A stretch of DNA of 58,500 nt from Candidatus Colwellbacteria bacterium (GTDB taxonomy: Bacteria > Patescibacteriota > Minisyncoccia > UBA6257 > Colwellbacteraceae): contig JAQTUL010000008.1 of the NCBI GenBank assembly GCA_028710275.1, positions 1-58,500 on the forward strand. Direction: 5' to 3'. Under the pieces are notes generated by a model. That model was not told the DNA's origin. It ran no database searches and saw only the letters and a program-made list of their open reading frames with translations. Both the position numbers and the translations under genes were made by a program. Positions 40 to 56,969 of the stretch are shown piece after piece (positions within the stretch are counted from its first letter, which is position 1; the number at the start of each line of letters is the position of its first letter).

Positions 40-129
40 GGAGAGGTGCTAGAGCGGTCGAATAGGACACGGTGCTAACGTGTTAGACTCGAAAGGGTCT
101 CCAGGGTTCGAATCCCTGCCTCTCCGCCA
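40..129 (+). tRNA. tRNA-Ser(GCT), CCA encoded
   Basis: Cloverleaf read by eye: acceptor GGAGAGG/CCTCTCC, anticodon stem ACACG/CGTGT with loop GTGCTAA, long variable arm, T-arm CAGGG-TTCGAAT-CCCTG, then GCCA. Confidence 0.9.
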
Positions 130-137
130 AGACAATT
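114..137. repeat. attL-type direct repeat CCCTGCCTCTCCGCCAAGACAATT (tRNA-Ser 3' end plus 8 nt trailer)
   Basis: Exact 24-bp match to 14981-15004. The flanking bases differ on both sides. Confidence 0.85.
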
Positions 138-227
138 TATTATCGGAGATGACCCATTTACCTAAGTAAGTGATATGATCCGAGTATATAAATAGTTTTA
201 AAATACACTTTCATATATAAATTATGT

Positions 228-2011: not shown

Positions 2012-2151
2012 ATACCTCATGAATGACGCCGACCGCCGAAGGAGTCCAGAGCGTCCCAAGTAGATAACTAAACAATGGCCAGACCTATGAAGAGTTGCGA
2101 ATTAACGTAAATACTTGACGAGCAAATGGAACTTATGCTAACATAGGAAAA

Positions 2152-3861
2152 ATGACAGAAACATCAAACGATAAGGACCTACTCTCTATCGGCGAAGTTG
2201 CCAAGATTTTTGGCATAAACAGAGATACCCTCCGCAATTGGGAGAAAAAGGGACTCATTACTCCACTTAGGATAGGTCCTCGTAAAGATCGCAAATACAG
2301 ACCGGAAGATATTGAGCGAATTGCTAATGACAAAAGCATTGTTAAAGATCTTGGTGTCCCCTTAACGGATGATCAGGGAAAGATGAACCTAACTCAGCTC
2401 AAGCAATTCCTTTGGAGAAGTGCCGATATTTTGCGGGGAAAGATCGACAGCTCGGATTACAAGAAATACATTTTTGGACTCCTATTCTATAAGCGCATCA
2501 GCGATATGTGGGATGAAGAGTATAAAAAGGTTCTTGAGGAGTATCACAATGAGGATTTAGCTCGCGAAGATCATAATCACCGATTTCAAGTTCCTAAAGA
2601 TTGCCGATGGGAAGTAATTCAAAAACAAGCTGAAGGAATCGGTCACAAACTCAATGAAATTTTTGATAAGCTAACCAACGCAAACAGTCCTAAACTCGAC
2701 AAGATTTTCGACGACCTTGATTTTGCTAATAAGGATAAGTTTCCGAATGAAACACTACAACGTCTTATAAATCACTTTTCACAGCATAATTTTGGAGATA
2801 ATTATATTAATTCCGATCTCCTTGGAGACGCATACGAGTATCTCATTGAGCAATTCGCAGCGGATGCGGGCAAAAAAGGCGGAGAGTTCTACACGCCACG
2901 CGAAGTTGAGCGCGTAATTGTCAATATCTTAAAGCCTCACGAAAAAGACCACATCTACGATATGACCGTAGGCTCCGGAGGATTCCTTTTAGAGGCGTAC
3001 CACTATCTTAAAAACGAGGCTAGTGAGAAGAAAGCTCGCTCACTCTACCTTTACGGGCAAGAAATAAATATCGGGACATATGCGATTGCGAAAATTAACA
3101 TGTTCCTTCATGGGCTTGATAGTGCCGACATACAACGTGGAGATACGCTAGCCGATCCGAAATTTCTAAATCCCGACGGCTCACTGAAGACCTTCGACAT
3201 CTGCGTAGCAAACCCACCCTATTCAATAAGTGAGTGGGAATCGGAAATATTTAAATCTGACAAACACGGACGAGCAGCTGGTTATGAAATGCCTCCGGCT
3301 AAGAAAGCGGACTATGCCTTTGTTCTTCACATGGTGAAGTCGATGAATGAGAACGGTCGTGCAGGCATCGTGCTTCCGCACGGTGTTCTTTTCCGTGGCG
3401 GCGCAGAGGGTCATATCCGTGAGCAGCTTATTAAAAATGATTTAATTGAAGCCATCATTGCCCTTCCCTCAAAGCTGTTCTATGGCACAGGTATCCCGGC
3501 GGCAATAGTAATATTTAACAAAAATAAGCCTGATGGCCATAAAAATAAGATCCTTATCGTCGATGCGGAGCAGGACTATGAAGAAGGCAAAAATCAGAAT
3601 CGCCTGCGGAAAGTGGATATTCAGAAGATAGTTTCGGCATTTGAGAGCTACAGAGACATTGAGAAATATGCCCGCGTCATAGGTATTAAGGAGCTTGAGG
3701 AAAACGAATTCAATCTCAATGTGCGTCGCTACGTTGAAAATGGCGAGGACGAGGAAGTGGTGGATGTAAAGACCGTCTGGGGCTATGTGAAAGAAATTGA
3801 AAATGATCGCGATGTGATTGATAAGAAGGTCGAGGGATATCTAAAGGGATTAAAATACTAA
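2152..3861 (+). CDS. hsdM: Type I R-M methyltransferase subunit HsdM with an N-terminal excisionase/MerR-type HTH extension
   Basis: Motif I TVGSGGFLL and motif IV NPPY; HsdM N-domain FLWRSADILRG. The first 77 aa (LLSIGEVAKIFGINRDTLRNWEKKGLITP) form an HTH. Confidence 0.9.
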   Translation: MTETSNDKDLLSIGEVAKIFGINRDTLRNWEKKGLITPLRIGPRKDRKYRPEDIERIANDKSIVKDLGVPLTDDQGKMNLTQLKQFLWRSADILRGKIDSSDYKKYIFGLLFYKRISDMWDEEYKKVLEEYHNEDLAREDHNHRFQVPKDCRWEVIQKQAEGIGHKLNEIFDKLTNANSPKLDKIFDDLDFANKDKFPNETLQRLINHFSQHNFGDNYINSDLLGDAYEYLIEQFAADAGKKGGEFYTPREVERVIVNILKPHEKDHIYDMTVGSGGFLLEAYHYLKNEASEKKARSLYLYGQEINIGTYAIAKINMFLHGLDSADIQRGDTLADPKFLNPDGSLKTFDICVANPPYSISEWESEIFKSDKHGRAAGYEMPPAKKADYAFVLHMVKSMNENGRAGIVLPHGVLFRGGAEGHIREQLIKNDLIEAIIALPSKLFYGTGIPAAIVIFNKNKPDGHKNKILIVDAEQDYEEGKNQNRLRKVDIQKIVSAFESYRDIEKYARVIGIKELEENEFNLNVRRYVENGEDEEVVDVKTVWGYVKEIENDRDVIDKKVEGYLKGLKY

Positions 3862-3865
3862 ATTT

Positions 3866-4678
3866 ATGTCAGAAGAACTACAAACAGAAGAAGTTAAAAC
3901 AATGAGCAAGCACGATTTCTATTTTGAAACCCCCTTGTATGAAGCAGTCTCAATTAGCGAACTAGAGAAAGATGCTTTCAGATACGATGTTGATGCCTAT
4001 AGCGCACAGAACGAGTCAGAAACTACCTACAGCATTTATACCCAAGAAATTGATACTTGGCTAAAAGATAGTACAACCATTGGTTTCTATCTGATTACTT
4101 TAACCTGTAAGAGAAAGCAGAATGATGTATTAAGATTTACTGTTTACAAGGACAGAGAAATTGTCCTAAAAATTGGTCAATACCCCTCTCTCGCAGATTT
4201 GCAGTTCGCGGAAATTGGTAAAAAGTATAACAAGGTTTTACCTTCTGAAGATCTAAAAAATCTCAAAAAGGCGATTGGGCTCGTATCTCACGGAGCTGGG
4301 GCGGGCTCGTTCGTTTATCTCAGGAGAATTTTTGAGAAATTAATTCTTGAGACATATACCAATAACGCTAGTTCTCTCAAGATAAACGAAAGTGATTTCA
4401 AAATACAGCGAATGATGGATAAAGTTGAAACGTTAAAAGCGTTCCTCCCGAGTCAGCTTGTAGAAATGAAGGGCGTTTACTCGATTTTAGGTAAAGGAGT
4501 CCACGAATTAACGGAGGAAGAGTGTCTCCGATATTTTTCACCGATCAAACTTTCTATTGAGTTGATCCTTGATCAGAAGATCGAGGAAGATAGAAAGCGT
4601 GAGAAAGACGCAGTGGTTAAAAAGCAATTACAACAAATTCAGCAGGAAATTGCCGCTGAAAGAGAAGATGAAAAATAA
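3866..4678 (+). CDS. Hypothetical protein inserted between hsdM and hsdS (possible DUF4145-like helical C-terminal half)
   Basis: 270-aa ORF tightly packed in the operon. The segment GLVSHGAGAGSFVYLRRIFEKLI...GKGVHE resembles helical domains seen in R-M loci, but the similarity is weak. Confidence 0.6.
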   Translation: MSEELQTEEVKTMSKHDFYFETPLYEAVSISELEKDAFRYDVDAYSAQNESETTYSIYTQEIDTWLKDSTTIGFYLITLTCKRKQNDVLRFTVYKDREIVLKIGQYPSLADLQFAEIGKKYNKVLPSEDLKNLKKAIGLVSHGAGAGSFVYLRRIFEKLILETYTNNASSLKINESDFKIQRMMDKVETLKAFLPSQLVEMKGVYSILGKGVHELTEEECLRYFSPIKLSIELILDQKIEEDRKREKDAVVKKQLQQIQQEIAAEREDEK

Positions 4679-5855
4679 TCTAGTACAACAGAATATTCCG
4701 AGCGGTTGGCAAAGCACCTCCGTCGATGATATTTGCTACGTTATGAAAGGACAGGGTCTTTCAAAAAAAGACATAGATCCTTCTGGTAAAAATAAATGCA
4801 TATTGTATGGCGAGTTATTTACAACTTACGACGAGGTTATTAAAGACGTAAAAAGCAGAACTGACTCAACTGTAGGCACTCCATCGGTCAGCGGTGATGT
4901 GCTGATCCCCGGATCGACAACAACGGTCGCACGAGACCTCGCAATTGCGTCAGCTTTAAACGAAGATGGTGTGCTTCTGGGTGGAGATATAAATATATTA
5001 AGAAGAAAAGACAGCTTCTACGACGCTAACTTTCTGGCCTATTACTTAACGCACTATAAGAAAGACGAAATTGGAAAACTCGGCCAAGGGACGACTATTG
5101 TTCACTTGTATGGAAGTAATATCAAAGCTTTAGAAGTCATTCTCCCTAAAAACATCAGAGAGCAGCAAAAAATTGCAGAGGTTTTAGGGACGGTGGATGA
5201 GGATATTGCGAAAACACAGGAAGTGATTGAAGCGACAGAAAAACTCAAGCGTGGATTGATGCAGGATATATTCAGCTTTAAAAATAAAAAAGATGTTAAA
5301 TATCTTGCTCTGGGGAATATTGGCAAGGTGTCCATGTGTAAGAGGGTTTTTAAAGAAGAAACATCAAACACGGGTGAGATACCGTTTTATAAAATTGGTA
5401 CTTTCGGGAAAGAGCCAGATGCTTTTATATCCCAAAAATTATTCGATAGTTACCGAAGAAAGTTTTCTTTTCCTAAAATTGGCGACATACTTTTATCAGC
5501 TTCTGGAACTATAGGTCGAAAAGTTAAATATGATGGCAAACCGGCGTATTTTCAAGATTCAAATATTATTTGGTTAGAACACGATGGAAGTAAAATTTTA
5601 AATGATTTCCTTTTTTATTTATACGACACAATAAAGTGGCAGACCGAAGGAAGCACAATAAAAAGATTGTATAACGATATTCTGTTGAAAAAAGTTGTTC
5701 CTGTGCCTTCTATTGATCAACAGAAGCGAATCGTAGAAGTTTTATCTGTAATTGATGAAAAGATTTCGGTCAATAAAAAATTGAAAGAAAAACTTACGCT
5801 CCTCAAAAGAGGCCTGATGCAGGATTTGTTGAGTGGGAAAAAGAGAATAATATGA
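4668..5855 (+). CDS. hsdS: Type I R-M specificity subunit HsdS
   Basis: Two variable target-recognition halves are each followed by the conserved LKRGLMQD(I/L) repeat. ATG 4668 has AAAGAGAAG upstream. The ORF track extends to 4569. Confidence 0.85.
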   Translation: MKNNLVQQNIPSGWQSTSVDDICYVMKGQGLSKKDIDPSGKNKCILYGELFTTYDEVIKDVKSRTDSTVGTPSVSGDVLIPGSTTTVARDLAIASALNEDGVLLGGDINILRRKDSFYDANFLAYYLTHYKKDEIGKLGQGTTIVHLYGSNIKALEVILPKNIREQQKIAEVLGTVDEDIAKTQEVIEATEKLKRGLMQDIFSFKNKKDVKYLALGNIGKVSMCKRVFKEETSNTGEIPFYKIGTFGKEPDAFISQKLFDSYRRKFSFPKIGDILLSASGTIGRKVKYDGKPAYFQDSNIIWLEHDGSKILNDFLFYLYDTIKWQTEGSTIKRLYNDILLKKVVPVPSIDQQKRIVEVLSVIDEKISVNKKLKEKLTLLKRGLMQDLLSGKKRII

Positions 5856-7132
5856 CTACCGAAACGCTAAAAAATAAAACGAAGACGAAAGAGATATACC
5901 ACGCAGTTAATACCGATCCTATTTTCGATGTTAAATCACGTGAAGTAACTAAGGGAAGTCTTTACGAAATTGTCTTTCCGTTTAACCGTCAAGGTAAGCA
6001 GAAATATTCTCTGATATCTGAGATCCATTTCGATGGGGTTAGTCGTCTAGACCTCAAAGGTATGCGAGGCATATCTCGCGGTTATGGCTTTACGCAGGAT
6101 ACTTCTCCCATCGTATCCACTCTGAATGAAGCTTTCCATGGCGTGACAAAAATTATCATTTCCACTAAGGCAACATCAATCAACCAGCGAAAAAGTGAGC
6201 TCGTGTTGAACATTAATGACTATAAGACTATTTACTCTACGATCAGGCCAAAAAACCAGAAACATTCTAAAGACCAAAAGGTTACAATCTATAATATTTT
6301 GGCACAGGCAGGCGGATTAGGCCTCAAGGCTAAGAAAATTCCTTATATCGCTGGATCAATTAAGGGAATCTTGAGAGAGGTTTCTTCATCGGGAGGAAAG
6401 CTGTCAGACGCCGATTCCGCCGCACTTCTTGATTTTGCACAGAACAAAATTGAAAACTATGACATTGATGCTGCCGCTCTAATCCATACGAAGGAAAAAA
6501 TAGACAAGGTTTATTTTGAGAAAGTCATAGCTAGGTTCGAGAAATTACTTGCTCTTAAAAAGGGTGTCGGTGCAAAGAAGATGGAACAGAGTTGGCACAA
6601 CTTCTTTAAAGATAACTCTTGGATCTTTTCGTACTTGTTTGCTGCACCACACTTCCTTTTTCAGGACGAGTATTATGTTGGTGGGCAAAAAGGCACGGGC
6701 AAAGAAGCGCGATATGCTGATTTTATTTATAAAAATAAACTGACCGACAGTGCAACAATAATTGAGATTAAAACTCACAGGACGAAAATACTACACAACA
6801 CTGCCTATCGTTCTGCTGGGAAGGTATATCCGATCTCGTCAGACATCACTGGAGCAATAAATCAGGTGCTCGATCAGAAGAACACTCTTCTTAAGAATTA
6901 TTCAACTGTAGCTCAAGGTGATTTTGAGATCTTTGACCCTCGCTGCGTCATCGTGGTCGGAAACACCAAAGACATCCCAAGGGAACGGGTAAAGAATTTT
7001 GACATGTTCCGCTCGAACCTGAGGAACATAGAAATCATCTGTTTCGACGAACTACTGGAAAAAGCAAAATTGCTTTTGAGTCACTTCATCAAACCGAGGG
7101 TCCCCAAAAAGAAAAAGAAGAAAAGAAAGTAA
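5852..7132 (+). CDS. Shedu-like (DUF4263-type) PD-(D/E)XK nuclease with an unrecognised N-terminal domain
   Basis: The C-terminal half has WHNFFKDNSWIFSYLF, YADFIY...IIEIKTH (D..ExK), VIVVGNT and IEIICFDELL, which matches the Shedu/SduA layout. Lysine-rich tail. Confidence 0.6.
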   Translation: MTTETLKNKTKTKEIYHAVNTDPIFDVKSREVTKGSLYEIVFPFNRQGKQKYSLISEIHFDGVSRLDLKGMRGISRGYGFTQDTSPIVSTLNEAFHGVTKIIISTKATSINQRKSELVLNINDYKTIYSTIRPKNQKHSKDQKVTIYNILAQAGGLGLKAKKIPYIAGSIKGILREVSSSGGKLSDADSAALLDFAQNKIENYDIDAAALIHTKEKIDKVYFEKVIARFEKLLALKKGVGAKKMEQSWHNFFKDNSWIFSYLFAAPHFLFQDEYYVGGQKGTGKEARYADFIYKNKLTDSATIIEIKTHRTKILHNTAYRSAGKVYPISSDITGAINQVLDQKNTLLKNYSTVAQGDFEIFDPRCVIVVGNTKDIPRERVKNFDMFRSNLRNIEIICFDELLEKAKLLLSHFIKPRVPKKKKKKRK

Positions 7133-7133
7133 C

Positions 7134-10046
7134 ATGAAATTTAACGAACAGGTCACAGTAGAAAGCTACATTATCAAGTTTATTGAAAATAAACTTGGCT
7201 TCGATTACATAAAATCGGAGGAATTTTCAAGACTCCGTGATCTTGAGAGTGAATACATTATCAAATCGCAGTTACTTGATGCGGTGAAAAGAATAAACGA
7301 GGTTGGTGATGCTGTGGCAAAAAGTGTTTTGCGAGAAGTAACTAAAATAGATTCAAATAAGGACTTTTTAGATTCTATTCGCAATGGTATAAATCTGAAA
7401 GATCCAGAAACCGGGCTATTTCGTGATTATAAAATCGTTGATTTTAATAATCCGGAAAATAATCAGTTTGTTGTTACCAACCAATTCTATTTTGAGGGAG
7501 ATACAGAAAATATTCGTCCGGATATATTGATTTTTGTGAACGGACTTCCGCTCGTGGACATTGAAGCAAAGAGTCCAACCGCCTCAGAAGGGGTTAACTT
7601 TGAGAATGGGATTGAGCAAATTAAGAGATATGAAAAAGTCGCCCGCAGGTTGTTTATTCCAAACTGCTTTAATATTGCGAGCGATGGTCTTAAAACAGTT
7701 TATGGAGCGACTGGTTCGCCGAAACAGCTTTTCCTCCAGTGGAGGGATGAGGATATAGAAAAAGAGTTTGGTGGCGAGTTAGAAATGACGCTCTTCTCAC
7801 TTCTCTCCAAAGAAAACTTTCTAGATATTATTCAAAACTTTATTCTCTTTGAAAAAGAGAAAGAGAAGATGGTAAAGAAAATGGCTCGCTATCAGCAAAT
7901 GCGAGCAACTAATAAGATTGTCGAGCGCGTTCTTTCCAAAGAAAAAAGACAAGGCTTAATTTGGCACACACAAGGATCCGGGAAAACACTTACAATGTTT
8001 TTCACTGCGTGGAAACTGCGATTCAATAAAGTCCTTGCCAACCCGAAGGTGTTTATTTTGGTTGATCGCGTGGATTTAGATGACCAGATATTTGAGACCT
8101 TTACCAATGCTGGAGGAAAGAACGTGGAAAGAGTTGTTTCTCGGAAAGATTTAGAAGAAAAGATTCAATCACCGATAAGCGGAATATTTATCACAACAAT
8201 TCAGAAGTTCTCAGAACTCGGAAGCCAAGTAGAAAATCTCGATGAAAATGTGATTATTCTTGCCGATGAAGCTCACCGAGGTAATGAGGGTATTTCTGGT
8301 ATCAATATGCGTAATGCCTTTAAAAAAGCGTTCTTCTTTGGATTTACTGGAACGCCAGTTGATAAAACACACACAAATACTTTCCGGAACTATGAGGGCG
8401 AAGGAAAACGCTACTTGGATTATTACTCCATCCAGCAATCAATTGATGACGGGGCGACAATTCCGGTGACATATGAGGCACGTCTCTCTAAGTTCTCTAT
8501 AGATGAAGAAAAACTTGATCAGAAATTTGAAGAGATAACCGGAGATTTACCTGATAAGCAAAAAACCGAACTTATAAAGAAATATGGTAAGAAGGCTGCG
8601 CTTGTTAAGTTACCAAAACGAATGGAAGCCGTAGCCAGAGATATTGTTGAGCATTATAAGCTATATGTCGAACCAAACGGTTTTAAGGCACAGGTTGTTG
8701 CATACGACCGTGAAGCAGTGGCGAATTATAAAAAGCTATTCGACAAACTCATCCCCGCTGAATGGTCAGCTGTGGTTTATTCGCCTGGAGATCCAAACAG
8801 TGATGCTGATGACTTAAAGATATATAACACGAGTAAACGTGAGCGAGAACAAATCATCGAACGCTTTAAAGATCCAAAATCTTCACTAAGACTCCTTCTG
8901 GTATGTGATATGTTACTAACTGGTTTTGATGCGCCTATTGAGCAAGTCATGTATCTCGATAAGCCGCTCCGTGATCACAACCTCTTGCAAGCAATTGCTC
9001 GTACAAACCGCGTCTACACAAATAAAGACTACGGGAAAATTATTGATTACTACGGAATAACGCGCAATCTCTACGACGCTCTTGATTTTGACGAAGATAT
9101 CATCGATTCAGCAATGATTGATATCGAGCGGGTCAAAGAAAGATTTACCGACATCTTGAGCGACATAATGAAGATGTTTATCGGAATTAATATTGAGGAT
9201 CCATCAATGGATAATCTCCGCCGATGCTTGAAGATTTTCATCGATAATCAAGATAAGCAAAAATATTTTCTTGAAAAATATACAAAACTAAAAAGCTTGT
9301 TTGAATTTCTATCGCCCGACCCATTCCTAAAAGAATATGTCCGTTCTTTTGAATGGGTGACAAGCTTCTATTTGGCATTTTTAAAAGAATTCCGAAATGA
9401 AGATGACAGATATCTGCTCGGAGAATATGGCGAGAAAGTTAAAGAACTCATACAAGAAAGTAACATTATTGACTACGAAGGGATTACTAAGAACTTCCGA
9501 GAGCTTCGTGTAAACGATCTATATACACTTGAGCGCCTAAAAGGAATGGACGACGAAGAAAAAGCGCTCAATCTCGAGAAAATGCTCAAGCAAGAAATCT
9601 CGATCAATCTTGACGAAAATCCTGCGTATCAAAAATTTAGCGAACGATTAACGGCTATTCGTCGCGAATTTGAGCAGAACCAAATTGACCTGGCTGAGCG
9701 TATCCGCCGATATGAGGAATTAATGAGTGATATTAAGTCAAAAGGAGAAGAAGCCAAAGATTTAGGTCTTGATCTCAAAGAATATGCACTCTATGTCATA
9801 TCGCAGGAATTCATTGAGGATGGTAAAGACGATGTTATTAAGAAATTCGTAAAGGAATTGCGGATTCGTATTGAAGATGACCTCGATGTAGGATGGCAAG
9901 AATCGTCAAAGCGGGACGCTTTTGTTAAGGATATTAAGCAAACTCTACAGGAGCTTATTCTGAAAGATTACAGAGAACAATTTAAAGTTACAGATTTCCC
10001 AAAGTTTTTAAATAGATTGGTCGACATAATCACGAAAAAATTCTGA
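7134..10046 (+). CDS. hsdR: Type I restriction enzyme R subunit HsdR
   Basis: 970 aa. N-terminal nuclease PDILIFVNGLPLVDIEAK, Walker A TQGSGKT, DEAH box ADEAHRG, motif VI QAIARTNR. Confidence 0.92.
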   Translation: MKFNEQVTVESYIIKFIENKLGFDYIKSEEFSRLRDLESEYIIKSQLLDAVKRINEVGDAVAKSVLREVTKIDSNKDFLDSIRNGINLKDPETGLFRDYKIVDFNNPENNQFVVTNQFYFEGDTENIRPDILIFVNGLPLVDIEAKSPTASEGVNFENGIEQIKRYEKVARRLFIPNCFNIASDGLKTVYGATGSPKQLFLQWRDEDIEKEFGGELEMTLFSLLSKENFLDIIQNFILFEKEKEKMVKKMARYQQMRATNKIVERVLSKEKRQGLIWHTQGSGKTLTMFFTAWKLRFNKVLANPKVFILVDRVDLDDQIFETFTNAGGKNVERVVSRKDLEEKIQSPISGIFITTIQKFSELGSQVENLDENVIILADEAHRGNEGISGINMRNAFKKAFFFGFTGTPVDKTHTNTFRNYEGEGKRYLDYYSIQQSIDDGATIPVTYEARLSKFSIDEEKLDQKFEEITGDLPDKQKTELIKKYGKKAALVKLPKRMEAVARDIVEHYKLYVEPNGFKAQVVAYDREAVANYKKLFDKLIPAEWSAVVYSPGDPNSDADDLKIYNTSKREREQIIERFKDPKSSLRLLLVCDMLLTGFDAPIEQVMYLDKPLRDHNLLQAIARTNRVYTNKDYGKIIDYYGITRNLYDALDFDEDIIDSAMIDIERVKERFTDILSDIMKMFIGINIEDPSMDNLRRCLKIFIDNQDKQKYFLEKYTKLKSLFEFLSPDPFLKEYVRSFEWVTSFYLAFLKEFRNEDDRYLLGEYGEKVKELIQESNIIDYEGITKNFRELRVNDLYTLERLKGMDDEEKALNLEKMLKQEISINLDENPAYQKFSERLTAIRREFEQNQIDLAERIRRYEELMSDIKSKGEEAKDLGLDLKEYALYVISQEFIEDGKDDVIKKFVKELRIRIEDDLDVGWQESSKRDAFVKDIKQTLQELILKDYREQFKVTDFPKFLNRLVDIITKKF

Positions 10047-10047
10047 T

Positions 10048-10614
10048 ATGAGTAAAATAGAATTACAAAATCAAACTATTACCTACACTCTTCGTAAGAG
10101 TAAGCGTGCTAAAAGAATGAGACTTGCGGTCTATTGTGACGGAACAATAGTGATCACTACTCCGCACAATTTTAAAGAAACAGTCGCAGAGAAGTTTATT
10201 AGGGAAAAGTCTGAATGGTTATTCTCAAAAATTGATTTCTTTAAGCAATTTCAAGGTCGTCCAGTTGCCCGATATAGCCAAGAAGACTATCTGAAATATA
10301 AAGATCAGGCGTTGGCTTTAACTAAAAAACGAATTGAGTATTTCAACAAAGCTCATGGTTTTAAATTCAATAAAATCAATATCAAAAATCAGAAGACTCG
10401 CTGGGGCAGCTGTTCAAGAAAAGGAAACTTGAATTTCAACTACAAAATTATCTTTCTACCGGATCGAGTACAAGACTATATCGTTGCTCACGAACTCTGT
10501 CATCTCAAAGAGTTTAATCACTCTAGAAAATTCTGGACATTAGTTTCTAAATTGATGCCTGACTACGCTACTATCCGGAATGACTTAAAAAAGAGTGGTT
10601 TAGCATTCTATTAG
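10048..10614 (+). CDS. DUF45/YgjP-like zinc metallopeptidase-fold protein
   Basis: HELCHLKEFNHSRKFW (HExxH...H) and TRWGSC. This family is commonly adjacent to hsdR. Confidence 0.8.
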   Translation: MSKIELQNQTITYTLRKSKRAKRMRLAVYCDGTIVITTPHNFKETVAEKFIREKSEWLFSKIDFFKQFQGRPVARYSQEDYLKYKDQALALTKKRIEYFNKAHGFKFNKINIKNQKTRWGSCSRKGNLNFNYKIIFLPDRVQDYIVAHELCHLKEFNHSRKFWTLVSKLMPDYATIRNDLKKSGLAFY

Positions 10615-10615
10615 G

Positions 10616-11353
10616 ATGATTAAAAGATTACCTAATCCAATAAAAAAAGTTGAGACCGGATTAATACAGTTTTTCTTTTACATAGGAACACTGGCCTACT
10701 TACTCTTAAAAGGATATGGATGGTCTTCTGTTCTGATTATTCATCTGATTTTTGTAGTGTTGTACGGAGTCTACTATTTCAGAGAAAATTTTCTCATATT
10801 TTTCTTTTCACCTATTATCGCTGTTTGGTTGCCAATTGAGAACTATAAGCTTCGAAAATATCTCAAAAAATTCAAACAAAACACACCGGCTAAATCAGTA
10901 GTTATTTTGGGACGTTATAATTGGTTTAAGTTTGACGCTTGGCTCAGGCAAAATTTTCTGAAGAGCGAGGTTAAGTCTCTTGTCTCATATTTAGAGGCAA
11001 AGAATCGAGACTTTTCTTTCTATCCTGATGCTACTCTTGCCGATGTGGAAAGTATTATGAGTAATAAGAGTATAAAGGAGGTGTATTTTATGGGCCACGG
11101 CGATTCACACACATTTCAACTTAACACTGATGAATTTCTGTACTATTGCGATTTTAACGATCCACAAAAATACGGCAAAGAATTTGTGCATCAAGTACAC
11201 TGCGGCACTCCTGATGGAAAAAGCTTAATAGATTATGTTGTGCCAGAGAAGAATAGGCCACAGTGCTTTTTCTTCAGGAAGCCAATTAATTCCTTCGATA
11301 TTGATAAGGAATTTAAGCGGAGGATTAAGAACCTCAAAAAATTAGGCGATTAG
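10616..11353 (+). CDS. Membrane-anchored hypothetical protein with a possible caspase/CHAT-like His/Cys dyad
   Basis: About three N-terminal TM helices. The C-terminal domain has VVILG, YFMGHGDSH and HQVHCGTPDG. The fold assignment is tentative. Confidence 0.55.
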   Translation: MIKRLPNPIKKVETGLIQFFFYIGTLAYLLLKGYGWSSVLIIHLIFVVLYGVYYFRENFLIFFFSPIIAVWLPIENYKLRKYLKKFKQNTPAKSVVILGRYNWFKFDAWLRQNFLKSEVKSLVSYLEAKNRDFSFYPDATLADVESIMSNKSIKEVYFMGHGDSHTFQLNTDEFLYYCDFNDPQKYGKEFVHQVHCGTPDGKSLIDYVVPEKNRPQCFFFRKPINSFDIDKEFKRRIKNLKKLGD

Positions 11354-11402
11354 CCTATAGATAGCTCCGACTTCGCGACCCTTATTAACTAAACTACGGA
11401 TC

Positions 11403-11936
11403 TTAAATTTCCTTGATCTTTTTATGTTTCTGCCAATCTCTAATATATCCCTCATAACCCGATAACTCGTAGTCCTCTATAGGACTACCATCCGGCTTAT
11501 TAGGTATTTCTCCACCAAACATTGTCAGTTCTTCTTTTAACCTTAGCGTTTTTTGACGTAAATTTTCTTCGAAGCTGTCTATTACATCTTCAGCCGTTAT
11601 CTGCTCGACAACTGGTGGCAACTCTTTCTTATGGAAGATAACCACATTACTCGTTTGTTTAGACTTATATCTTTGATCATTATGGCCTAGTACATATTTG
11701 ATCGCCGTCATGTCCTTGTCCTTTACCTTGAGCATGAGAGCATGTTCGGCTATGTCGCAATTATTTTCTCTGCCACGCTGTATGGCCTGACCCGCAAGTT
11801 TCCGGAACTCTTTATCCGAGTTGCGCCAACGATAATACGTCGATTTGTCGATTCCGGTTTTCAGGCAAGACAAAAATACATTCCCGCTTTTCTCGAGTTC
11901 TTTAAGAAGTTTCTGTTTTGTCTTGTCGTCGATCAT
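11403..11936 (-). CDS. Phage-type HTH protein (terminase small subunit-like)
   Basis: N-terminus KQKLLKELEKSGNVFLSCLKTGIDKSTYYRWRNSD resembles the HTH of phage small terminase/phBC6A51-type proteins. Confidence 0.55.
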   Translation of the reverse strand: MIDDKTKQKLLKELEKSGNVFLSCLKTGIDKSTYYRWRNSDKEFRKLAGQAIQRGRENNCDIAEHALMLKVKDKDMTAIKYVLGHNDQRYKSKQTSNVVIFHKKELPPVVEQITAEDVIDSFEENLRQKTLRLKEELTMFGGEIPNKPDGSPIEDYELSGYEGYIRDWQKHKKIKEI

Positions 11937-11937
11937 A

Positions 11938-13266
11938 TTAATTCACTTTTACTGGTTTCTTACCTGTTTCTTTTCCCCAGCGACGCAATATCACTTCGGT
12001 ATAGACTGGAGATTTTTCCATAAGATAACACCGACGGCTCATTTTGTTTGCCGCGATGAGTGTCGACCCGCTTCCGCCAAACGGCTCAACAATCAGGTCG
12101 CCACGTCTGGTTAATACCTTGATGTATGGAATAAGGATCTCAACAGGCTTAGTCCCGAAGATAATGCCTTGTCCTGATGATTTCTCGTCAGCCGCAATGT
12201 GCTCGATAAAGTCAGTCGGACATATTTTCTTGCCTTTCTCGTATGTCTCCCAATGCGGTTTACCGTTTATGGCATACAAGGCGGTTTCGTATTCGTTTTC
12301 GAGAAACTCTCCTTCATCTTGGTTTATAAGCTCCACACCTTCGGTTGTGCCGACCATGGCAATATCGTGTTTATTAAAGAATCGGTATTTGGCTGAGAAT
12401 CCCTGCACTCTATTAGGTAAGTGCCAGACGATCATGTTTTTGACCTTCCAGTGTTTTTCCATCTCGTTCCAGATAGTCCTAATATTCTTCCAATTCTCAT
12501 AGACGATAATGGCGAAGTCTTCTTTAGCCACCTTACTGATGTTACTCATCCAGAGTTCAGTGAAGTTATCCGGCAAGACATCGGTTTCAAGGTAGCGCCT
12601 GTTTTTCTTGGCCCCGAAGCCTGTCGTCACGCCATCTTTCTGCTTTGTTTTGCCTTTTAGGTAATCGAGGATGTATGGCGGATCGGTAAGGCACATATCC
12701 GCCTTATTGTTGTCCATAAGTTTGAGCATATCTGCCTCCACGGTTGAATCACCGCACATGAGGCGCGATCCATCCAGTTCATAGATATCGCCCTTTTCTA
12801 CGCTGATTGTTTCAATGCTTAGCTTCTCTAACTCTTTATTGAGATCAAACTGCTCAACATTTGGATCAACGGGGAAGATGTCATCTAAGTCTTCGCTGTT
12901 GAAGCCAATATCGGCGAGAAATGACTCGTCGAATTGAGCTAACAGTTCAAGGTCAAACTCTCCAGTATTTTTGTTGAGCCGGAGGTTTAACTCTTTCTCT
13001 TTAGATAAGTCGGCAATTTGTACATAGACTACTGGCACCGCTGCCATACCCATCTCTTTAGCTACCTCAGCTCTGAAGTGACCGCCAATGATTATGTTCT
13101 TTCGCTCCGGCGCGCTATTGCATATCACCGGATCAACCATACCGAATCGTTTGATGGATTCTCTAAGCTGGTCGCTTTGTTCCTTGGAGTGTCTTCGAGG
13201 GTTATACTCCGATGCCCGAAGTTCGTTAATCGGAACTTCAACGATAGAAAGATTTTGTTTATTCAT
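11938..13266 (-). CDS. ParB-like nuclease domain fused to an N4/N6 DNA methyltransferase
   Basis: ParB/Srx motifs YNPRRH and IIGGHFR; methylase motif IV TDPPY and motif I EPFGGSGST. Confidence 0.85.
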   Translation of the reverse strand: MNKQNLSIVEVPINELRASEYNPRRHSKEQSDQLRESIKRFGMVDPVICNSAPERKNIIIGGHFRAEVAKEMGMAAVPVVYVQIADLSKEKELNLRLNKNTGEFDLELLAQFDESFLADIGFNSEDLDDIFPVDPNVEQFDLNKELEKLSIETISVEKGDIYELDGSRLMCGDSTVEADMLKLMDNNKADMCLTDPPYILDYLKGKTKQKDGVTTGFGAKKNRRYLETDVLPDNFTELWMSNISKVAKEDFAIIVYENWKNIRTIWNEMEKHWKVKNMIVWHLPNRVQGFSAKYRFFNKHDIAMVGTTEGVELINQDEGEFLENEYETALYAINGKPHWETYEKGKKICPTDFIEHIAADEKSSGQGIIFGTKPVEILIPYIKVLTRRGDLIVEPFGGSGSTLIAANKMSRRCYLMEKSPVYTEVILRRWGKETGKKPVKVN

Positions 13267-13544
13267 AGTTTTCTAGGTGAATTATTTTGAGTAAACACAA
13301 ACACCACCCTGTTGGGTGGTGTTTCTATCGACCGAGTTCAAAAACACACCCCTAAGGGTAATATTTTTGATACTCGGCTGTTCGCAATTTTATTCTTCTA
13401 AGAGAATGGTGTATGGACTCTTCCGTCAGCTGAGCTGCGTTCTCCAGAGTTAAGAGTCGCTGCGAGAACGTTTCAAAAAAACTAACTAATATGGCAAAGT
13501 GCTTACATAGCAAGTATACAACATTTTGAAATAATTTAGAACAT

Positions 13545-14192
13545 ATGTCTTTATCCGATAAAGCCATCAAAGAGTTTCAGGAGATTTATAAGAAGAAATA
13601 CGGCAAAGATATTTCTCCTGAAGAAGCACGCGATGCTGGCGAGCGTTTAGTAGGCTTGTTTGAAGTTCTGTTTGATAGCCATGTTGCCGAATTAAGGTTG
13701 AAGGAGAAGCTGAAAGATCACCCAAAGGGGTTTTCTTTAATGGATGACGAGATCTATAACTGCGGTATTTGCCATACTCAGATCAGAGACGAAGAACTTT
13801 GGTATGACAAATGGGGTAAAAAGTGCCTTGCGTGCCAGGATGCAGTAAACAAGAAGATTATTCCCGGGAAGATCTGTTATAACAACAAAGATTGGTACGC
13901 TGTATGGGAGCTAGATAGCTGTTTCAAACTAAAGGCGGCGGCCGCCAGGAAGCTTATCCGACAAGGCGTCCTAAAGGCTCGTATTGTCCCAAAAAGCGGC
14001 TTTGAGGTCATTTTGTTGAAAGAGAATACCGATGTCCTACCTCCTAAGGAAATACTGAAATATGTCTCTGTACCTGTAGAGGGCAAAGAGGGCGCTTTCA
14101 GCATGACCCCGTGGTACGAAATATATGATCCCAAGAAGGTGCTAGGGAGCTATAAAATCTGGCCGTATTTAACAGCTTTTAACCAAAAATAA
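13545..14192 (+). CDS. Hypothetical protein with a CxxC...CxxC zinc-finger-like motif
   Basis: 215-aa ORF. CGICHTQI...KKCLACQ. Island cargo. Confidence 0.6.
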   Translation: MSLSDKAIKEFQEIYKKKYGKDISPEEARDAGERLVGLFEVLFDSHVAELRLKEKLKDHPKGFSLMDDEIYNCGICHTQIRDEELWYDKWGKKCLACQDAVNKKIIPGKICYNNKDWYAVWELDSCFKLKAAAARKLIRQGVLKARIVPKSGFEVILLKENTDVLPPKEILKYVSVPVEGKEGAFSMTPWYEIYDPKKVLGSYKIWPYLTAFNQK

Positions 14193-14194
14193 CT

Positions 14195-14674
14195 ATGTCC
14201 ACAAATCAGACAAGCTTTTCCTCAGAAGAGACGTCACTTATAGAAAAAGTTGAACGTGCGGTGCGGTCTTCGATTAAAACAGATTTTGAGATTCTAAAAA
14301 ATGGTAGGGTAGAAAGAAGTTTTACATCTCATCTCGCAAGAGCAATACAGGATGAGATAAGCGAGCATAACATTTATGGCGATCCCTTCTATAATAAACA
14401 TTTAGGGGCAGCTAAATATCTTAATGGTAAAATAATAGAGCTAGATGTAGCCGTTCACGAAAGAAATGTAGATACAAACAATCTGGTCGCGATAGAACTA
14501 GAAACAAATAATCACCCAGAAGGTAACGATATTTGGAAAATCGAAGGATTGACTCATAATCTCGGCGGTTATGGTTATAAGATTGGCTTGTATTTGGTTG
14601 TTGGGGTTTCAGAAAGAGCTGGGGAAATAATTACGATGGATTGGTATAAAAGTGGTAGTAAAGTGAAAATTTAG
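14195..14674 (+). CDS. Hypothetical protein
   Basis: 159-aa ORF, 3 nt after the previous gene. No motif recognised with confidence. Confidence 0.55.
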   Translation: MSTNQTSFSSEETSLIEKVERAVRSSIKTDFEILKNGRVERSFTSHLARAIQDEISEHNIYGDPFYNKHLGAAKYLNGKIIELDVAVHERNVDTNNLVAIELETNNHPEGNDIWKIEGLTHNLGGYGYKIGLYLVVGVSERAGEIITMDWYKSGSKVKI

Positions 14675-14849
14675 AAAGTCCTGAGTACTGTCTTATTTGT
14701 CGCATTTTGGAATTGGGATAACGACCCACATACCTTAAATTTGATCCTGTTTAGAGGCCTCAAAGAGGCCTTATAATGCTTACATACGGTGAGTACTTAA
14801 CTCACATACACCGCATACTATAACAACCGACTTATGTCGGTTGTTATAG

Positions 14850-14996
14850 TATTTGAAAAGGTTCGCAGGGATTCGAACTGAAAAGGGGTCGGGAAAAACC
14901 GCTCGGCAGTTTTTCCCGTAGCGGAAATACTAAAACCGATGGGTTTTAGGGAGCGAATGAATATGAGCGACGTTCGATTACCCTGCCTCTCCGCCA
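14850..14996 (-). ncRNA. tRNA-3'-end-associated structured module, copy D (right edge of the island)
   Basis: Inverted tRNA-Ser T-arm copy GCAGGGATTCGAAC at 14865-14878. Hairpins GGGAAAAAC/GTTTTTCCC (14891-14917) and AAAACC/GGTTTT (14932-14947). Conserved GAGCGACG, then a partial tRNA-Ser 3' end. Homologous to copies A, B and C. Confidence 0.45.
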
Positions 14997-15004
14997 AGAC
15001 AATT
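14981..15004. repeat. attR-type direct repeat (second copy of the tRNA-Ser 3' end)
   Basis: Exact 24-bp match to 114-137. Confidence 0.85.
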
Positions 15005-15133
15005 CTTTATTGGTACAACCCGAGTGAGTACCTAACTGTATATGGGAAAAAAATGGTTTGAATTAAGGACCAAGGTTCCTAAAACGCAGTCCCGCGAATA
15101 CGCGGACGAGTAGTGAGACTCCCCTGCCTCTCC
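15005..15133 (-). ncRNA. Truncated module copy E plus a third partial tRNA-Ser 3' end (CCCTGCCTCTCC, 15122-15133)
   Basis: 15062-15121 aligns with copy C at 53047-53104 in inverted orientation (TCTCACTAC..GTCC(C)GCGTATT.GCGGGACTGCGTTTTAGGA.CCTT.GGT.CCT). Confidence 0.4.
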
Positions 15134-15225
15134 ACACTGATAAACTCACTCCATAAAGGATGGCTCCTTTTCCGGGTAAATCATTTACTCATCAGTGTTA
15201 TAATTAACCCATCTTGCTTTTCGAT

Positions 15226-15582
15226 ATGAAACGCCTCAGAAAAAGTTTTTACTACGCTTTCTCCGGTTTGAAGCAGACCTGGCAGAAAGAGCAGAATTTC
15301 CGTATCCAACTCCTGATAGGCTCCATAATCATAGCTGCCGGGATGATCATAAGCCTCGATTGGTTCCGAATGTTCGCTCTTATCGTGACGATATGTATGG
15401 TTCTCTCTCTCGAAACGATAAACTCCGCCTTTGAACGTTATATCGATAGAATATCTCCAGAGAGAGACGATACAATAGGGTTAGTTAAGGATATGTTGGC
15501 CGGAGCAGTGCTTTTATCGGTACTAGCCTCCGTCATCATTGCCGGACTGGTCTTTATTAAGCCGCTATCTGTCATATTTTAA
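15226..15582 (+). CDS. dgkA: Diacylglycerol/undecaprenol kinase
   Basis: Small three-TM protein. RLRKSFYYAFSGLKQTWQKEQNFRIQ is a typical DgkA N-terminus. The ORF track starts at 15214. Confidence 0.8.
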   Translation: MKRLRKSFYYAFSGLKQTWQKEQNFRIQLLIGSIIIAAGMIISLDWFRMFALIVTICMVLSLETINSAFERYIDRISPERDDTIGLVKDMLAGAVLLSVLASVIIAGLVFIKPLSVIF

Positions 15583-15680
15583 AAAAACCTCCGGTGCCAG
15601 TATTAGATATTTGTTAAGCCAGTTATAAGCATCCTCATCTATATTAAGAGCCATTCCAACTATACCCACGATTGCCGTTT

Positions 15681-16034
15681 TTATCTTTTTGGTCTTTCTT
15701 CTTTTTTAATGAGTTTTATTATCGAACCACTGATATCGTTCCAATTTTCAGTGAATTCAGAAATAACTTTTCTGCCCATATTGGTCATCCGATAGTATTT
15801 TCGTGGCGGACCACTTTTGGACTCTCTCCATTCATATTCCAAAAAACCGGCCTCCTTCAGGCGGTTTAGAAGTGGATATATCGTGCCTTCAACCACTTTC
15901 ATATCAGCCCCCTTGAGCTCCTCTATTATATCCGGGGCATAGATGGCCCCTCTTGATACTACGAGCATCACGGCGAAATCGAGAACCCCTTTTCTCATCT
16001 GAGCCCTCGCATTCTCCATTCCTGTCGTTTCCAT
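15681..16034 (-). CDS. PadR family transcriptional regulator
   Basis: MRKGVLDFAVM...EGTIYPLLNRLKEAGFLEYEW...RKYYRMT. The internal ATG at 15998 has GAGGG upstream and may be the true start. Confidence 0.85.
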   Translation of the reverse strand: METTGMENARAQMRKGVLDFAVMLVVSRGAIYAPDIIEELKGADMKVVEGTIYPLLNRLKEAGFLEYEWRESKSGPPRKYYRMTNMGRKVISEFTENWNDISGSIIKLIKKEERPKR

Positions 16035-16236
16035 CGGTTAACATATATCACACACTACCTTTTATTACAATATACTGAATACTTCTCCATATAACACAAA
16101 AGACCCTTTCGGGTCTCTCGTGTTGGCGTGATCACCATCTAGAACAGCCTCACACCGTTCCTTCCGACAATCTTGCCCTTCTGGATTGATTATCCCCCAT
16201 ACATCCTCCCTTATCAATACCCCCAAATTCACAGTA

Positions 16237-16265
16237 TTGACTTTTTATAAAATTTGTTGTGTAAT
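16237..16265 (+). promoter_or_regulatory. Candidate sigma-70 promoter (TTGACT, 17 nt spacer, TGTAAT)
   Basis: -35 at 16237-16242 and -10 at 16260-16265. Lies upstream of an AAGGGAG Shine-Dalgarno and ATG 16312. Confidence 0.35.
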
Positions 16266-16311
16266 ATCAGAGTACATTTCAAAAATATATGTATGTGAAG
16301 GGAGTGTTTGT

Positions 16312-16650
16312 ATGTCGAACATGGAATTTCCGCCTAGGAAAAGCATGCTCACGAGAGATGGCATCACCTCAAGACCGCTTCTGCCGAAGGAGAAGGACGA
16401 CTACACGATCATGTGGTTCAGCTCGTTATCTAAGTCCTATATCGGACTGCCGATGAATGGAGCGCTCGTCATGGTCGTATCCGTAGCTGGAGATAAGCTC
16501 TTCACGGAAATGATCGGCTTAGCGAAAGACTTCTATCTTGTTGTCTCTCCGGCGACCGTGAGTGGTGGCCATACCCTTGCCAAGCTGGCCTTCGGTATAG
16601 GAGGTCTCATGCTGATGAAAGGCTTGATGAACATCAAGGACAGAAAATAG
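16312..16650 (+). CDS. Hypothetical protein
   Basis: ATG preceded by AAGGGAG. The ORF track's longer 16186 start would run through the promoter-like sequence. Confidence 0.5.
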   Translation: MSNMEFPPRKSMLTRDGITSRPLLPKEKDDYTIMWFSSLSKSYIGLPMNGALVMVVSVAGDKLFTEMIGLAKDFYLVVSPATVSGGHTLAKLAFGIGGLMLMKGLMNIKDRK

Positions 16651-16697
16651 GAAACTCCCGATAAAATACCCATAGCTGAGCTATGGGTATTATTTTT

Positions 16698-17222
16698 TTA
16701 CACAGCCTGTTTCTTTGGGGCTCTAGACATAATCTCATCAATCAGCTTTTTCAGCCTGTCCCCATAAGAAGGGTCTATGATAGCTCCCTTATCATCAAAG
16801 AGTTTGCCGACATTACTAAACATCACGGCCTCCCTCATCGGTATCATATGCAGCTCGATGGAAACCAATCTCAATTGTTCTATCATCCTTGCTCCTCCTA
16901 ATATGCCTATCGATACGCCGCATATTCCCATTGGCTTCCCAAAATATTCATCATATGCGGAATCAAGCAGCATCTTAAGCTCTCCTGGATAGCCATGGTT
17001 ATATTCCGGAGAAACGACGATAACCCCGTCTGCCTCCTTTATTTTTCTTTTATATTCGACAGTCATCGGTGAAGGTTCCCATGTCGCTCTGGCACCATGA
17101 TCTCTTACATCGATTATCTCGGTTATATTTCCCGATAATGACAGTTGATCACTTACGAACTTTGCCACCTTCTCGGAAGCTCTCCCCTCTCTCCCTGTAC
17201 CTAATATGATAGGTATATACAT
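16698..17222 (-). CDS. NAD(P)H-dependent FMN reductase (flavodoxin-like fold)
   Basis: IILGTGREGRASEKV...VVSPEYNHGYPGELK is the family signature. Confidence 0.8.
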   Translation of the reverse strand: MYIPIILGTGREGRASEKVAKFVSDQLSLSGNITEIIDVRDHGARATWEPSPMTVEYKRKIKEADGVIVVSPEYNHGYPGELKMLLDSAYDEYFGKPMGICGVSIGILGGARMIEQLRLVSIELHMIPMREAVMFSNVGKLFDDKGAIIDPSYGDRLKKLIDEIMSRAPKKQAV

Positions 17223-17313
17223 ATATCAATTATACATATGTTATCCAAAATAAGATTGACACATCTATGTTAAATTGATATCCTGCCGGGATTCCAAGAA
17301 AGGAGTGAGTTCT

Positions 17314-17865
17314 TTGGAAAATTCAAAGAGATACACAAAGATATTCATCGTAACGGACGAGAAGCTCTATGATGATCTCCTGTCGACCTGGAAAGGATAC
17401 CAGACAAGGAGAGTTAATCTCGGACTTCAGGATACTTTCGCTGGAAAGGTTAAGGACGTCCGCTTTGCCTCTATCATTGAAAGAATGTCCGGAAAAAATA
17501 CCGTCATAGGTTTTATATTCTGGCCAAGACTTTCTCTGACCGATAAGAATCTGGTCGAAAAGGCTAAAAAGGATATTTCTAAATCTTTCCCTGGAGGGAT
17601 AGCCCCGTATGAGACAGCTGTCATAGGCGATAGGGAAAAGATCGGAAAATTCCTTAAAAAAGCCCGCTTTGTCCCACGTATCAGTTCTCGTTACCATTGG
17701 ATAGGAGAACCCTTCGGATGGGGCATAGCCGTCGATCTCACAAGTAACAACACGGGACTAATGAGGCAGTTCGTATCCGAACTCGCCACGATGGCCCTCG
17801 ACCTCGAGGAGGAAATGCTTACAGGGAGGCTCATGAGAGCGATGAGAATATCGTCAGAAAAGTAA
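17314..17865 (+). CDS. Hypothetical protein
   Basis: In-frame TTG at 17314 has AAAGGAG 9 nt upstream. The ORF track starts at 17275. Confidence 0.5.
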   Translation: MENSKRYTKIFIVTDEKLYDDLLSTWKGYQTRRVNLGLQDTFAGKVKDVRFASIIERMSGKNTVIGFIFWPRLSLTDKNLVEKAKKDISKSFPGGIAPYETAVIGDREKIGKFLKKARFVPRISSRYHWIGEPFGWGIAVDLTSNNTGLMRQFVSELATMALDLEEEMLTGRLMRAMRISSEK

Positions 17866-18648: not shown

Positions 18649-18700
18649 GATATAAATAACATTTTAAAAAAACCGCTCTAAAAAGCGGTTTTTTATTATA

Positions 18701-18840
18701 TGAGCGGGAGACGAGAATCTCCTTCGACTAAATCTCTCGCCGTCGCTCAAGATTTGTCTCTGGCTCGCCTCCCTCTATTTTTCTACTGAAAAATCTTCGG
18801 TCCGGCGTTCGACTCCCATCTAAACCCATCCGATATAATA
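18701..18840 (+). ncRNA. tRNA-3'-end-associated structured module, copy A (next to tRNA-Gly-TCC)
   Basis: Starts with a partial antisense tRNA-Gly 3' end, TGAGCGGGAGACGAGAATC. Has conserved CCGTCGCTC, hairpin ATTTTTC/GAAAAAT at 18777-18794 and GTTCGACTCCC at 18807-18817. Confidence 0.4.
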
Positions 18841-56963: not shown

Positions 56964-56969
56964 CATATT

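Follow-up and report, generated by a model that had tools for sequence, protein, structure and literature searches.

In the studied window, i.e. the whole stretch of 58,500 nucleotides from contig JAQTUL010000008.1 of a Candidatus Colwellbacteria bacterium, the interval separating the cargo of a tRNA-Ser-associated serine recombinase island from a diacylglycerol kinase gene is, with a probability which we put at roughly 65%, a composite of the right end of this island, a resident structured module (module D), what is left of a second recombinase element and an older module E in truncated form (Table 1). [quoted passage not shown] A second recombinase element would have left a left-arm stump which is fused to the tRNA-end copy of module D, and the host flank would be adjoined by module E, whose tRNA-end copy would be the oldest. 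The hairpin, the inverted T-arm copy, the 24-nt repeat and the third tRNA end which a preliminary description of this DNA had listed are all present where it had placed them. Its suggestion of at least two successive insertions at the same tRNA is likewise borne out by the intact recombinase island, the remnant of a second element and modules D and truncated E.

Table 1. Features of the window, with coordinates, strand and basis of the assignment.
Feature	Position	Strand	Basis
tRNA-Ser(GCU)	40-129	+	ARAGORN
Island left arm P'1, CAAGACAATTTATTATCGGAGATGACCC...	128-175	+	Motif conserved right after ...CCGC in >30 loci
Large serine recombinase gene, 440 aa	689-2011	-	Pfam domains
Cargo: type I restriction-modification HsdM, HsdS, HsdR; YgjP peptidase; ParB-methyltransferase; unknown ORFs	2152-14674	.	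Pfam
Island right arm P1, GAGTACTTAACTCACATACACCGC	14783-14814	+	Homologous to P arms of L222, L227, L176, L168, L232
Putative trailer of the native tRNA-Ser, containing hairpin 14818-14849; B' (host) side of attR	14815-14850	+	Spacing after removal of 128-14814
Module D	14859-14994	+	Covariance model R1, 69.7 bits, E = 9e-18
P'2, left-arm remnant of second recombinase element, fused to T' of module D	14995-15045	+	P' alignment
Module E, 3' half only, ending in third tRNA-Ser end copy CCCTGCCTCTCC at 15122-15133	15060-15133	+	Identity to tRNA-Trp module
Diacylglycerol kinase gene, after module E and host flank	15226-15582		
Degenerate module behind tRNA-Gly(UCC)	about 18690-18832	-	
Module behind tRNA-His	49536-49683	-	
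Module behind tRNA-Trp, reference for the usual cargo-free layout	53033-53199	-	

Arms and extent of the recombinase island

Pfam analysis of the open reading frame 689-2059 (minus strand) reveals the domains Resolvase (PF00239), Recombinase (PF07508) and Zn_ribbon_recom (PF13408), that is, the catalytic resolvase N-terminus, the recombinase domain and the zinc ribbon of a large serine recombinase. The protein has more than 8000 homologues, the best 120 of which are 84-94% identical to it and, where their source is named, are all labelled CPR (candidate phyla radiation) or unclassified bacterium. Within a comparison set of 80 related recombinase loci a tRNA-Ser gene adjoins the recombinase in 31 of the 32 loci with a neighbouring tRNA, the remaining one featuring tRNA-Asp. 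These tRNA-Ser genes represent five anticodons (GCU, CGA, GGA, UGA and "ACU"). The conserved motif CAAGACAATTTATTATCGGAGTCAACCC, which constitutes the left arm P' of the element, always follows directly upon ...CTCCGC at the recombinase loci, while tRNA-Ser genes without an island continue from ...CTCCGC with A(T/A)... and then a hairpin. As judged from these alignments, the site used by the recombinase family is a conserved site of the protein-recognised type at the acceptor end which tRNA-Ser genes have in common. The anticodon ACT was assigned by ARAGORN to tRNA-Ser genes of L122 (13377-13464) and, beside the recombinase, of L154 and L161; these putative tRNAs would be unusual for bacteria.

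In the window, the tRNA-Ser 3' end at 106-127 (...GTTCGAATCCCTGCCTCTCCGC) represents the B half-site of the recombinase target and, together with the island left arm starting at 128, forms attL. Native tRNA-Ser genes of CPR bacteria read ...CCGC followed by A, whereas island-bearing ones read ...CCGC followed by CA (124-129 in the window), from which it follows that the encoded CCA is supplied by the island to a tRNA gene otherwise lacking one.

The preliminary description had taken module D to form the right edge of the island. However, a homologue of the right arm P is located about 50 nt upstream of module D, at 14783-14814. It matches the arms of L222 at 19 of 34 positions, while random positions in the window match at 10.9 ± 2.1 and a fraction of 0.001 of them reaches 19; its segment TACACCGC occurs a single time in the window. 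Downstream of the arm come ATACTATAAC and a hairpin with arms of 14 bp and a 4-nt loop (15 bp if the pair 14817/14850 is counted), in agreement with the A-T start of the trailer seen behind native tRNA-Ser genes. We infer that the true attR consists of the right arm and the host trailer following it.

Junctions at other loci permit a placement of the crossover. Native B-B' junctions, in which tRNA-Ser is succeeded by A-T and the hairpin, occur in L004, L005, L095 and L048; B-P' junctions are present in more than 30 loci; P-P' junctions are found in L222, L227, L176 and L232, and a P-B' junction is represented by 14807-14814 of the window. In the tandem small elements of L222 and L227, the right arm P ending ...GGCACTGAACGCGTGTACACCGC is joined directly to the left arm P' beginning CAGGACAATTTCTTATCGG..., and one of the L222 elements, 2.9 kb in length, contains the recombinase alone. 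Junctions of this attachment type recur every 2-3 kb in tandem 3' of two tRNA-Ser genes (L222, 3810-11700; L227, 2600-5650; flipped coordinates). All four junction types of the P, P', B and B' arms are arranged around one CCGC, the attR of the window being assigned by homology alone, so that the crossover would be situated within this tetranucleotide, at 124-127 and 14811-14814. A crossover at AA/AT in GACAATT, considered on account of a symmetry argument, was rejected since the attR of the window and native trailers diverge immediately after CCGC.

Drawing on the moderate homology of the arms (19/34) and on the logic of the junctions, we place the boundary at 14814, whereby the island probably spans about 128-14814 (14.7 kb) and module D probably lies just outside of it. 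Removal of 128-14814 in silico leaves the tRNA, the hairpin and module D in succession, with 58 nt between the tRNA end and TCGAAC, the median within the module family amounting to about 55. The predicted empty site would accordingly read ...CCTCTCCGC followed by ATACTATAACAACCGAC..., and would still contain the hairpin and module D. In the excised circle, 14814 would be connected to 128 (...CTCACATACACCGC followed by CAAGACAATTTATT...) rather than 14980 to 138. The preliminary description had further envisaged that, upon circularisation, the AT-rich stretch 138-227 provides the module with a junction promoter; 138-175, however, is part of the conserved left arm, and the predicted circle junction would not bring it next to the module.

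Further routes towards the island ends were followed. Among homologues of the downstream kinase, the nearest are 55-61% identical and have kept the synteny with tRNA-Ser, yet they are too distant to represent the state prior to insertion. Within the 10-kb flanks of the 80 recombinase loci, no tRNA-end copy is present to the right of the recombinase, which means that the islands are long or that their right arms are not identical to the tRNA. Homologues of the last cargo ORF (14195-14674) were dismissed as guides to island right ends, as they are located in unrelated defence islands with other recombinases, devoid of tRNAs and modules. Within the cargo itself, a Shedu gene (SduA C-terminal domain; 5852-7132) is nested between HsdS and HsdR of the type I restriction-modification operon.

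The right arm is itself laid out like a tRNA 3' end: 14786-14814 read GGTGAG-TACTTAA-CTCAC-ATACACC-GC, i.e. a 5-bp stem with a 7-nt loop, followed by segments of five and seven nucleotides, G and C. The corresponding arm of L232 (about 85-110, flipped coordinates) retains GTTCGAAT in exact tRNA register. By their sequence, the arms of the recombinase look like decayed copies of tRNA ends. Furthermore, a 13-nt direct repeat, GTGAGTAC(T/C)TAAC, occurs both in the right arm (14789-14801) and in what remains of the left arm of the second element (15024-15036). It may represent a common binding motif of the recombinase because its copy within the right arm is itself palindromic.

The direct repeat and the segment behind module D

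The 24-nt repeat CCCTGCCTCTCCGCCAAGACAATT is present at 114-137 and 14981-15004 and brackets the recombinase, the cargo and module D without a mismatch. If module D formed the right edge of the island, the two copies would be its attL/attR pair, and this arrangement is an observation in favour of module D being the right terminal part of the island, where it could act together with the recombinase, e.g. as a guide or accessory RNA produced from the circle junction. Module E likewise adjoins a copy of the tRNA end, and in L016 a recombinase fragment is followed by 6.3 kb of DNA and then a module, a layout which equals that of the window and is compatible with a module inside as well as outside an island. 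The identity of the two repeat copies, however, runs on into a homologue of the left arm in both cases. Aligned with P' arms of other loci, 14995-15045 (CAAGACAATTCTTTATTGGTACAACCCGAGTGAGTACC) attains a score of 21, the maximum for shuffled sequences being 14 (mean 7.2, sd 1.7). As both copies are succeeded by P' homologues, both are junctions of the attL (B-P') type, and the similarity to the right of the repeat accordingly fades gradually instead of stopping abruptly. Module D is preceded by a right-arm homologue, and its tRNA-end copy is followed by a P'-like sequence. The latter arrangement is also encountered in L048, whose recombinase is 64% identical, and at position 6099 of L222.

Further observations render a location of the module inside the recombinase element, and any dependence of the two on each other, improbable. 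No module was found by the covariance model R1 in L222, L227, L176, L168 or L232, and the module-free P-P' junctions of L222, L227, L176 and L232, which include the 2.9-kb element, exhibit, at least in part, what the preliminary description had named as an outcome contradicting its proposal, namely elements with a recombinase of the same family but without a module. In addition, the recombinase family is specific for tRNA-Ser (31/32) and has a conserved protein-type site, whereas modules reside behind tRNAs of at least 13 species and tmRNA with no recombinase nearby. Finally, the inverted and the direct copy within the module do not constitute two adjacent half-guides; both correspond to one tRNA segment and form base pairs with one another. 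A role of the module as guide RNA for the recombinase is therefore not supported; as far as sequence comparison goes, the module is independent of the recombinase, the sole link between them being that both involve tRNA 3' ends.

On the composite reading, two histories could have produced the segment behind module D. Either a second recombinase element integrated into the tRNA-end copy of module D, which would have served as a second attachment site, or module D inserted between the tRNA and an older island; both would require the later deletion of most of the second element and of the 5' half of module E. That module E is truncated, as had been proposed, was confirmed: its segment at about 15060-15121 is a genuine 3' fragment which, across 56 nt, is 89% identical to the tRNA-Trp module in the 3' half of the latter.

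A kinase gene adjoins tRNA-Ser also in L240 and L245. In L240 (4907-4976), where tRNA-Ser(GGA) is positioned directly upstream of diacylglycerol kinase, a 70-nt insert contains a hairpin like that of the E/Trp-type module and ends in the 3' end of a different tRNA-Ser (CCCTGCCCTCTCCGCCA). In L245 (4982-5000) tRNA-Ser(GGA) is likewise positioned directly upstream of diacylglycerol kinase, with no insert. Elsewhere in the window, the 3' end of tmRNA (T-arm and acceptor, 34 nt; 56931-56964) is repeated with 88% identity 1.35 kb downstream, at 58311-58344. One gene is situated between both copies and a perfect 22-bp hairpin (58349-58395) follows the second one; neither a module nor a recombinase is present. 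From its layout, this pair of repeats looks like a one-gene insertion, or the remnant of one, at tmRNA.

A structured module family behind tRNA genes

Module D contains an inverted copy, GCAGGGATTCGAAC at 14865-14878, which is the exact reverse complement of tRNA-Ser 106-119 (tRNA positions 53-66), a core with the helices P2 and P3 at 14873-14952 and the tRNA-end copy T' at 14972-14994 (GTTCGATTACCCTGCCTCTCCGC). In the fold, the closing stem pairs the inverted with the direct copy. The window modules at tRNA-His, tRNA-Trp and tRNA-Gly(UCC) are oriented on the strand of their tRNA, from which they are separated by a hairpin only. A pattern scan over one genome per species yielded 120 loci. The matches in high-GC genomes are chance hits inside coding DNA, and the low-GC loci with a real module belong to genomes of CPR bacteria (Patescibacteria) or to MAGs for which "bacterium" is the sole label.

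The layout of the module is constant. The tRNA and a spacer or hairpin are followed by 8-22 nt of inverted tRNA sequence, copied from G53 outward, by the core, consisting of GGGGTC, helix P2, GTGGAGGA, helix P3 with a CCGNGGG loop and a variable hairpin, and by GTGAGAT or GTTCGAT leading into a direct copy of the T-stem 3' strand and the acceptor 3' strand. Written as RNA, the conserved core reads GGGGUC, P2, GUGGAGGA and P3 with its CCGNGGG loop. In most loci the direct copy is identical to the neighbouring tRNA at 13 of 13 positions. Partners are tRNAs for Ser, Lys, Gly, Leu, Arg, Gln, Glu, Pro, Ala, Cys, Tyr, Trp and His (at least 13 species) as well as tmRNA, and about 26 of the 32 modules with an identifiable tRNA are located within about 70 nt of it, without cargo. 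To go by these sequences, the family comprises widespread, undescribed elements behind tRNA genes of CPR bacteria.

An alignment of whole modules by MAFFT aligned the 3' halves poorly and was replaced by an alignment of the cores and the covariance model R1, built on 28 cores, which returned 53 matches. Over these matches, P2 is paired to 98.8% with compensatory changes at five of its eight pairs, and all eight pairs of P3 covary, so that double changes affect 13 of the 16 pairs of both helices, as expected for a structured RNA. The covariation score of 0.384 compares with 0.171 ± 0.011 for shuffled alignments, none of 500 shuffles reaching it, and with at most 0.18 for slid controls, although the alignment, being fitted to the model, favours the structure. 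The G-U pairs fall on the strand with the sense of the tRNA; as the structure forms on this strand, the module is probably a small RNA. The outer closing helix shows no significant excess of G-U over A-C combinations (39 against 29, p = 0.27). Pairing in this helix is strong only beside the T-loop, amounting to about 87% at positions 61-63 and to about 40% at positions 68-73, and this drop led us to reject the idea that the module RNA requires a mimic of the full acceptor stem.

Searches for known relatives and partners gave the following results. With Rfam 15, only tRNA and tmRNA exceeded the gathering thresholds in the window, L036, L066 and L084, and nothing credible was obtained at E ≤ 10 for module D, module E and the tRNA-Trp module. 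No protein family or neighbour gene recurs beside the modules in 45 module loci, and at the modules no promoter stands out in a promoter scan. Terminator-like hairpins are placed between tRNA and module in 15 of 30 cases and after the tRNA-end copy in 7 of 30. A scan of viral contigs for the module pattern produced 21 matches, none of which fits the module profile or has a tRNA, and gave no sign of a phage or circular form. Within the open-access literature we found no description of the module family or of an RNA-guided serine recombinase.

The strong conservation of the core and the covariation of its helices across distant CPR classes might be explained if the module were a stable host gene for a non-coding RNA, co-inherited with its tRNA and mimicking a tRNA acceptor/T-arm helix into whose T-loop a large domain is inserted, its link to the island being limited to that of a decoy target. 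Such a gene would fit the 13/13 identity of the direct copy combined with a variable outer inverted copy, and the lack of any mobility gene nearby. It would also agree with the subtypes, defined by the sequences of P3 and the 3' hairpin, partly following the partner tRNA across CPR classes, as in L033, L063 and L010 (tRNA-Lys) or in module D and L048 (tRNA-Ser GCU). This match suggests either co-inheritance with the tRNA or tRNA-specific spread. We nonetheless regard the host gene as unlikely. Degenerate or truncated copies exist (the tRNA-Gly(UCC) module, module E, L110 and L033), two different modules stand in tandem at one tRNA-Pro in L068, and module E and the tRNA-Trp module combine a common scaffold with different tRNA ends within one genome. 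Moreover, a module remnant is present at the syntenic tRNA-Ser of L240 while none is present in L245, and only some tRNAs of a genome carry a module.

A further alternative regards the module not as an RNA but as the surviving attachment-site arm of other degraded integrative elements at tRNA 3' ends, e.g. those of tyrosine integrases, resembling a cis-mobilizable element. Direct repeats of the tRNA end do flank the module, tandem or nested remnants are seen in L095, L068 and at D/E of the window, and tandem islands with tRNA or tmRNA end repeats have a precedent (PMC3146451). Nevertheless, this origin has little probability: the compensatory changes in P2 and P3 indicate a base-paired structure rather than arm sites for protein binding, about 26 of 32 units stand within about 70 nt of a tRNA without cargo, no integrase family recurs nearby, and known attachment-site arms do not contain an inverted copy of the tRNA end.

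With moderate confidence, we infer that the module is a non-autonomous small RNA element which spreads or duplicates at tRNA 3' ends. It would be a self-contained structured unit of about 130-170 nt in which the inverted copy of T-loop and T-stem pairs with the direct copy of the tRNA 3' strand to form a closing helix around the conserved core. Its end sequences would be taken from the local tRNA, and its spread would not depend on the recombinase. In L059 (minus strand, 2400-6300), two near-identical modules are arranged in direct orientation 3.7 kb apart. Inverted repeats of about 65 nt bound the DNA which separates the two, and the second module harbours a 45-nt insertion in the P3 loop and a different tRNA-end copy.

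Relation to known systems and implications

The island shares with large serine recombinase (phage-integrase type) islands, which recombine attP with attB, the domain composition, conserved arms, junctions with few bases in common and a defence cargo. It differs from them in that its target is the extreme 3' end of tRNA-Ser of any anticodon, that its right arm is laid out as a decayed tRNA 3' end and that a tRNA-end copy within an unrelated module may be used as a target as well.

Among structured RNAs, the bridge RNA or seekRNA of the IS110 family measures about 150-180 nt, contains target-derived sequence and has its gene at a mobile-element edge. Its internal loops, which contain guides for both strands of target and donor, read two adjacent half-sites, and it further comprises a donor-binding loop and acts with a DEDD transposase. 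The module resembles it in being structured, in its position at a mobile-element edge and in its target-derived sequence. In contrast to the bridge RNA, however, the tRNA-derived segments of the module are terminal and pair mutually, both covering the same tRNA positions from 53 to about 73, instead of forming two internal guide loops; a donor-binding loop is absent and the module occurs without a recombinase. No DEDD (RuvC-like) IS110 transposase is present among the 20 ORFs scanned at 228-17865, and none recurs in the 45 module loci. As to the omega-RNAs of TnpB and IscB, in which a scaffold precedes a 3' guide and which overlap or abut the tnpB or iscB gene at one end of a transposon, no ORF recurs as a neighbour in these 45 loci, a factor provided in trans from elsewhere in the genome being possible.

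The module also bears a likeness to tRNA-like domains and minihelix mimics such as the tRNA-like domain of tmRNA or YrlA: its 5' and 3' ends pair as a helix of T-stem sequence, in some copies extended by the acceptor stem, and its 3' strand has exactly the sequence found in a genuine tRNA. Unlike the tmRNA domain and YrlA, it copies whichever tRNA adjoins it and bears a large domain at the position of the T-loop. Only about 40% of the copies include the whole acceptor part, and neither aminoacylation nor a coding tag is indicated.

The nearest published parallel for tandem serine recombinase islands marked by repeats of a small-RNA 3' end is offered by the ssrA islands of Dehalococcoides, in which the serine recombinase DsiB is encoded beside attL in a tandem array 3' of one small-RNA gene (PMC3146451). 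Their boundaries are repeated gene 3' ends, recombinase-less units are located between repeats, and accretion with cis-mobilizable elements occurs (PMC3146451). In these islands, a 20-bp repeat results from insertion into the T-loop and no structured module has been reported (PMC3146451), whereas in the window the crossover falls after the acceptor stem and at least one copy of the repeat is supplied by an independent structured element.

For the analysis of integrative elements, our results imply that an extended direct repeat beside a tRNA need not represent the two ends of one element, as two left ends are concerned here. The boundary of the island is thereby shifted by about 190 nt, and tools which call boundaries from tRNA-end repeats would err likewise. 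The recombinases constitute a very abundant CPR family with the acceptor end common to all tRNA-Ser as target, whose core site is testable.

We tentatively propose, at odds somewhat below even, that the modules form an undescribed, CPR-specific class of small structured RNAs which copy the 3' end of the adjoining tRNA or tmRNA in inverted and direct form and whose tRNA-like helix serves for propagation towards, or action upon, tRNA genes or tRNAs. Incidentally, they would multiply the integration sites for islands that target tRNAs and thereby seed the growth of defence islands. A strongly conserved and covarying family of units of about 150 nt, with both ends tailored to the adjacent tRNA and several copies per genome, exists without an Rfam entry or an associated protein in a major, poorly understood bacterial radiation. 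If transcribed, the module would add a class to the known RNAs, with an unusual tRNA mimic specific to each locus; if mobile, its mechanism of insertion would have no described parallel.
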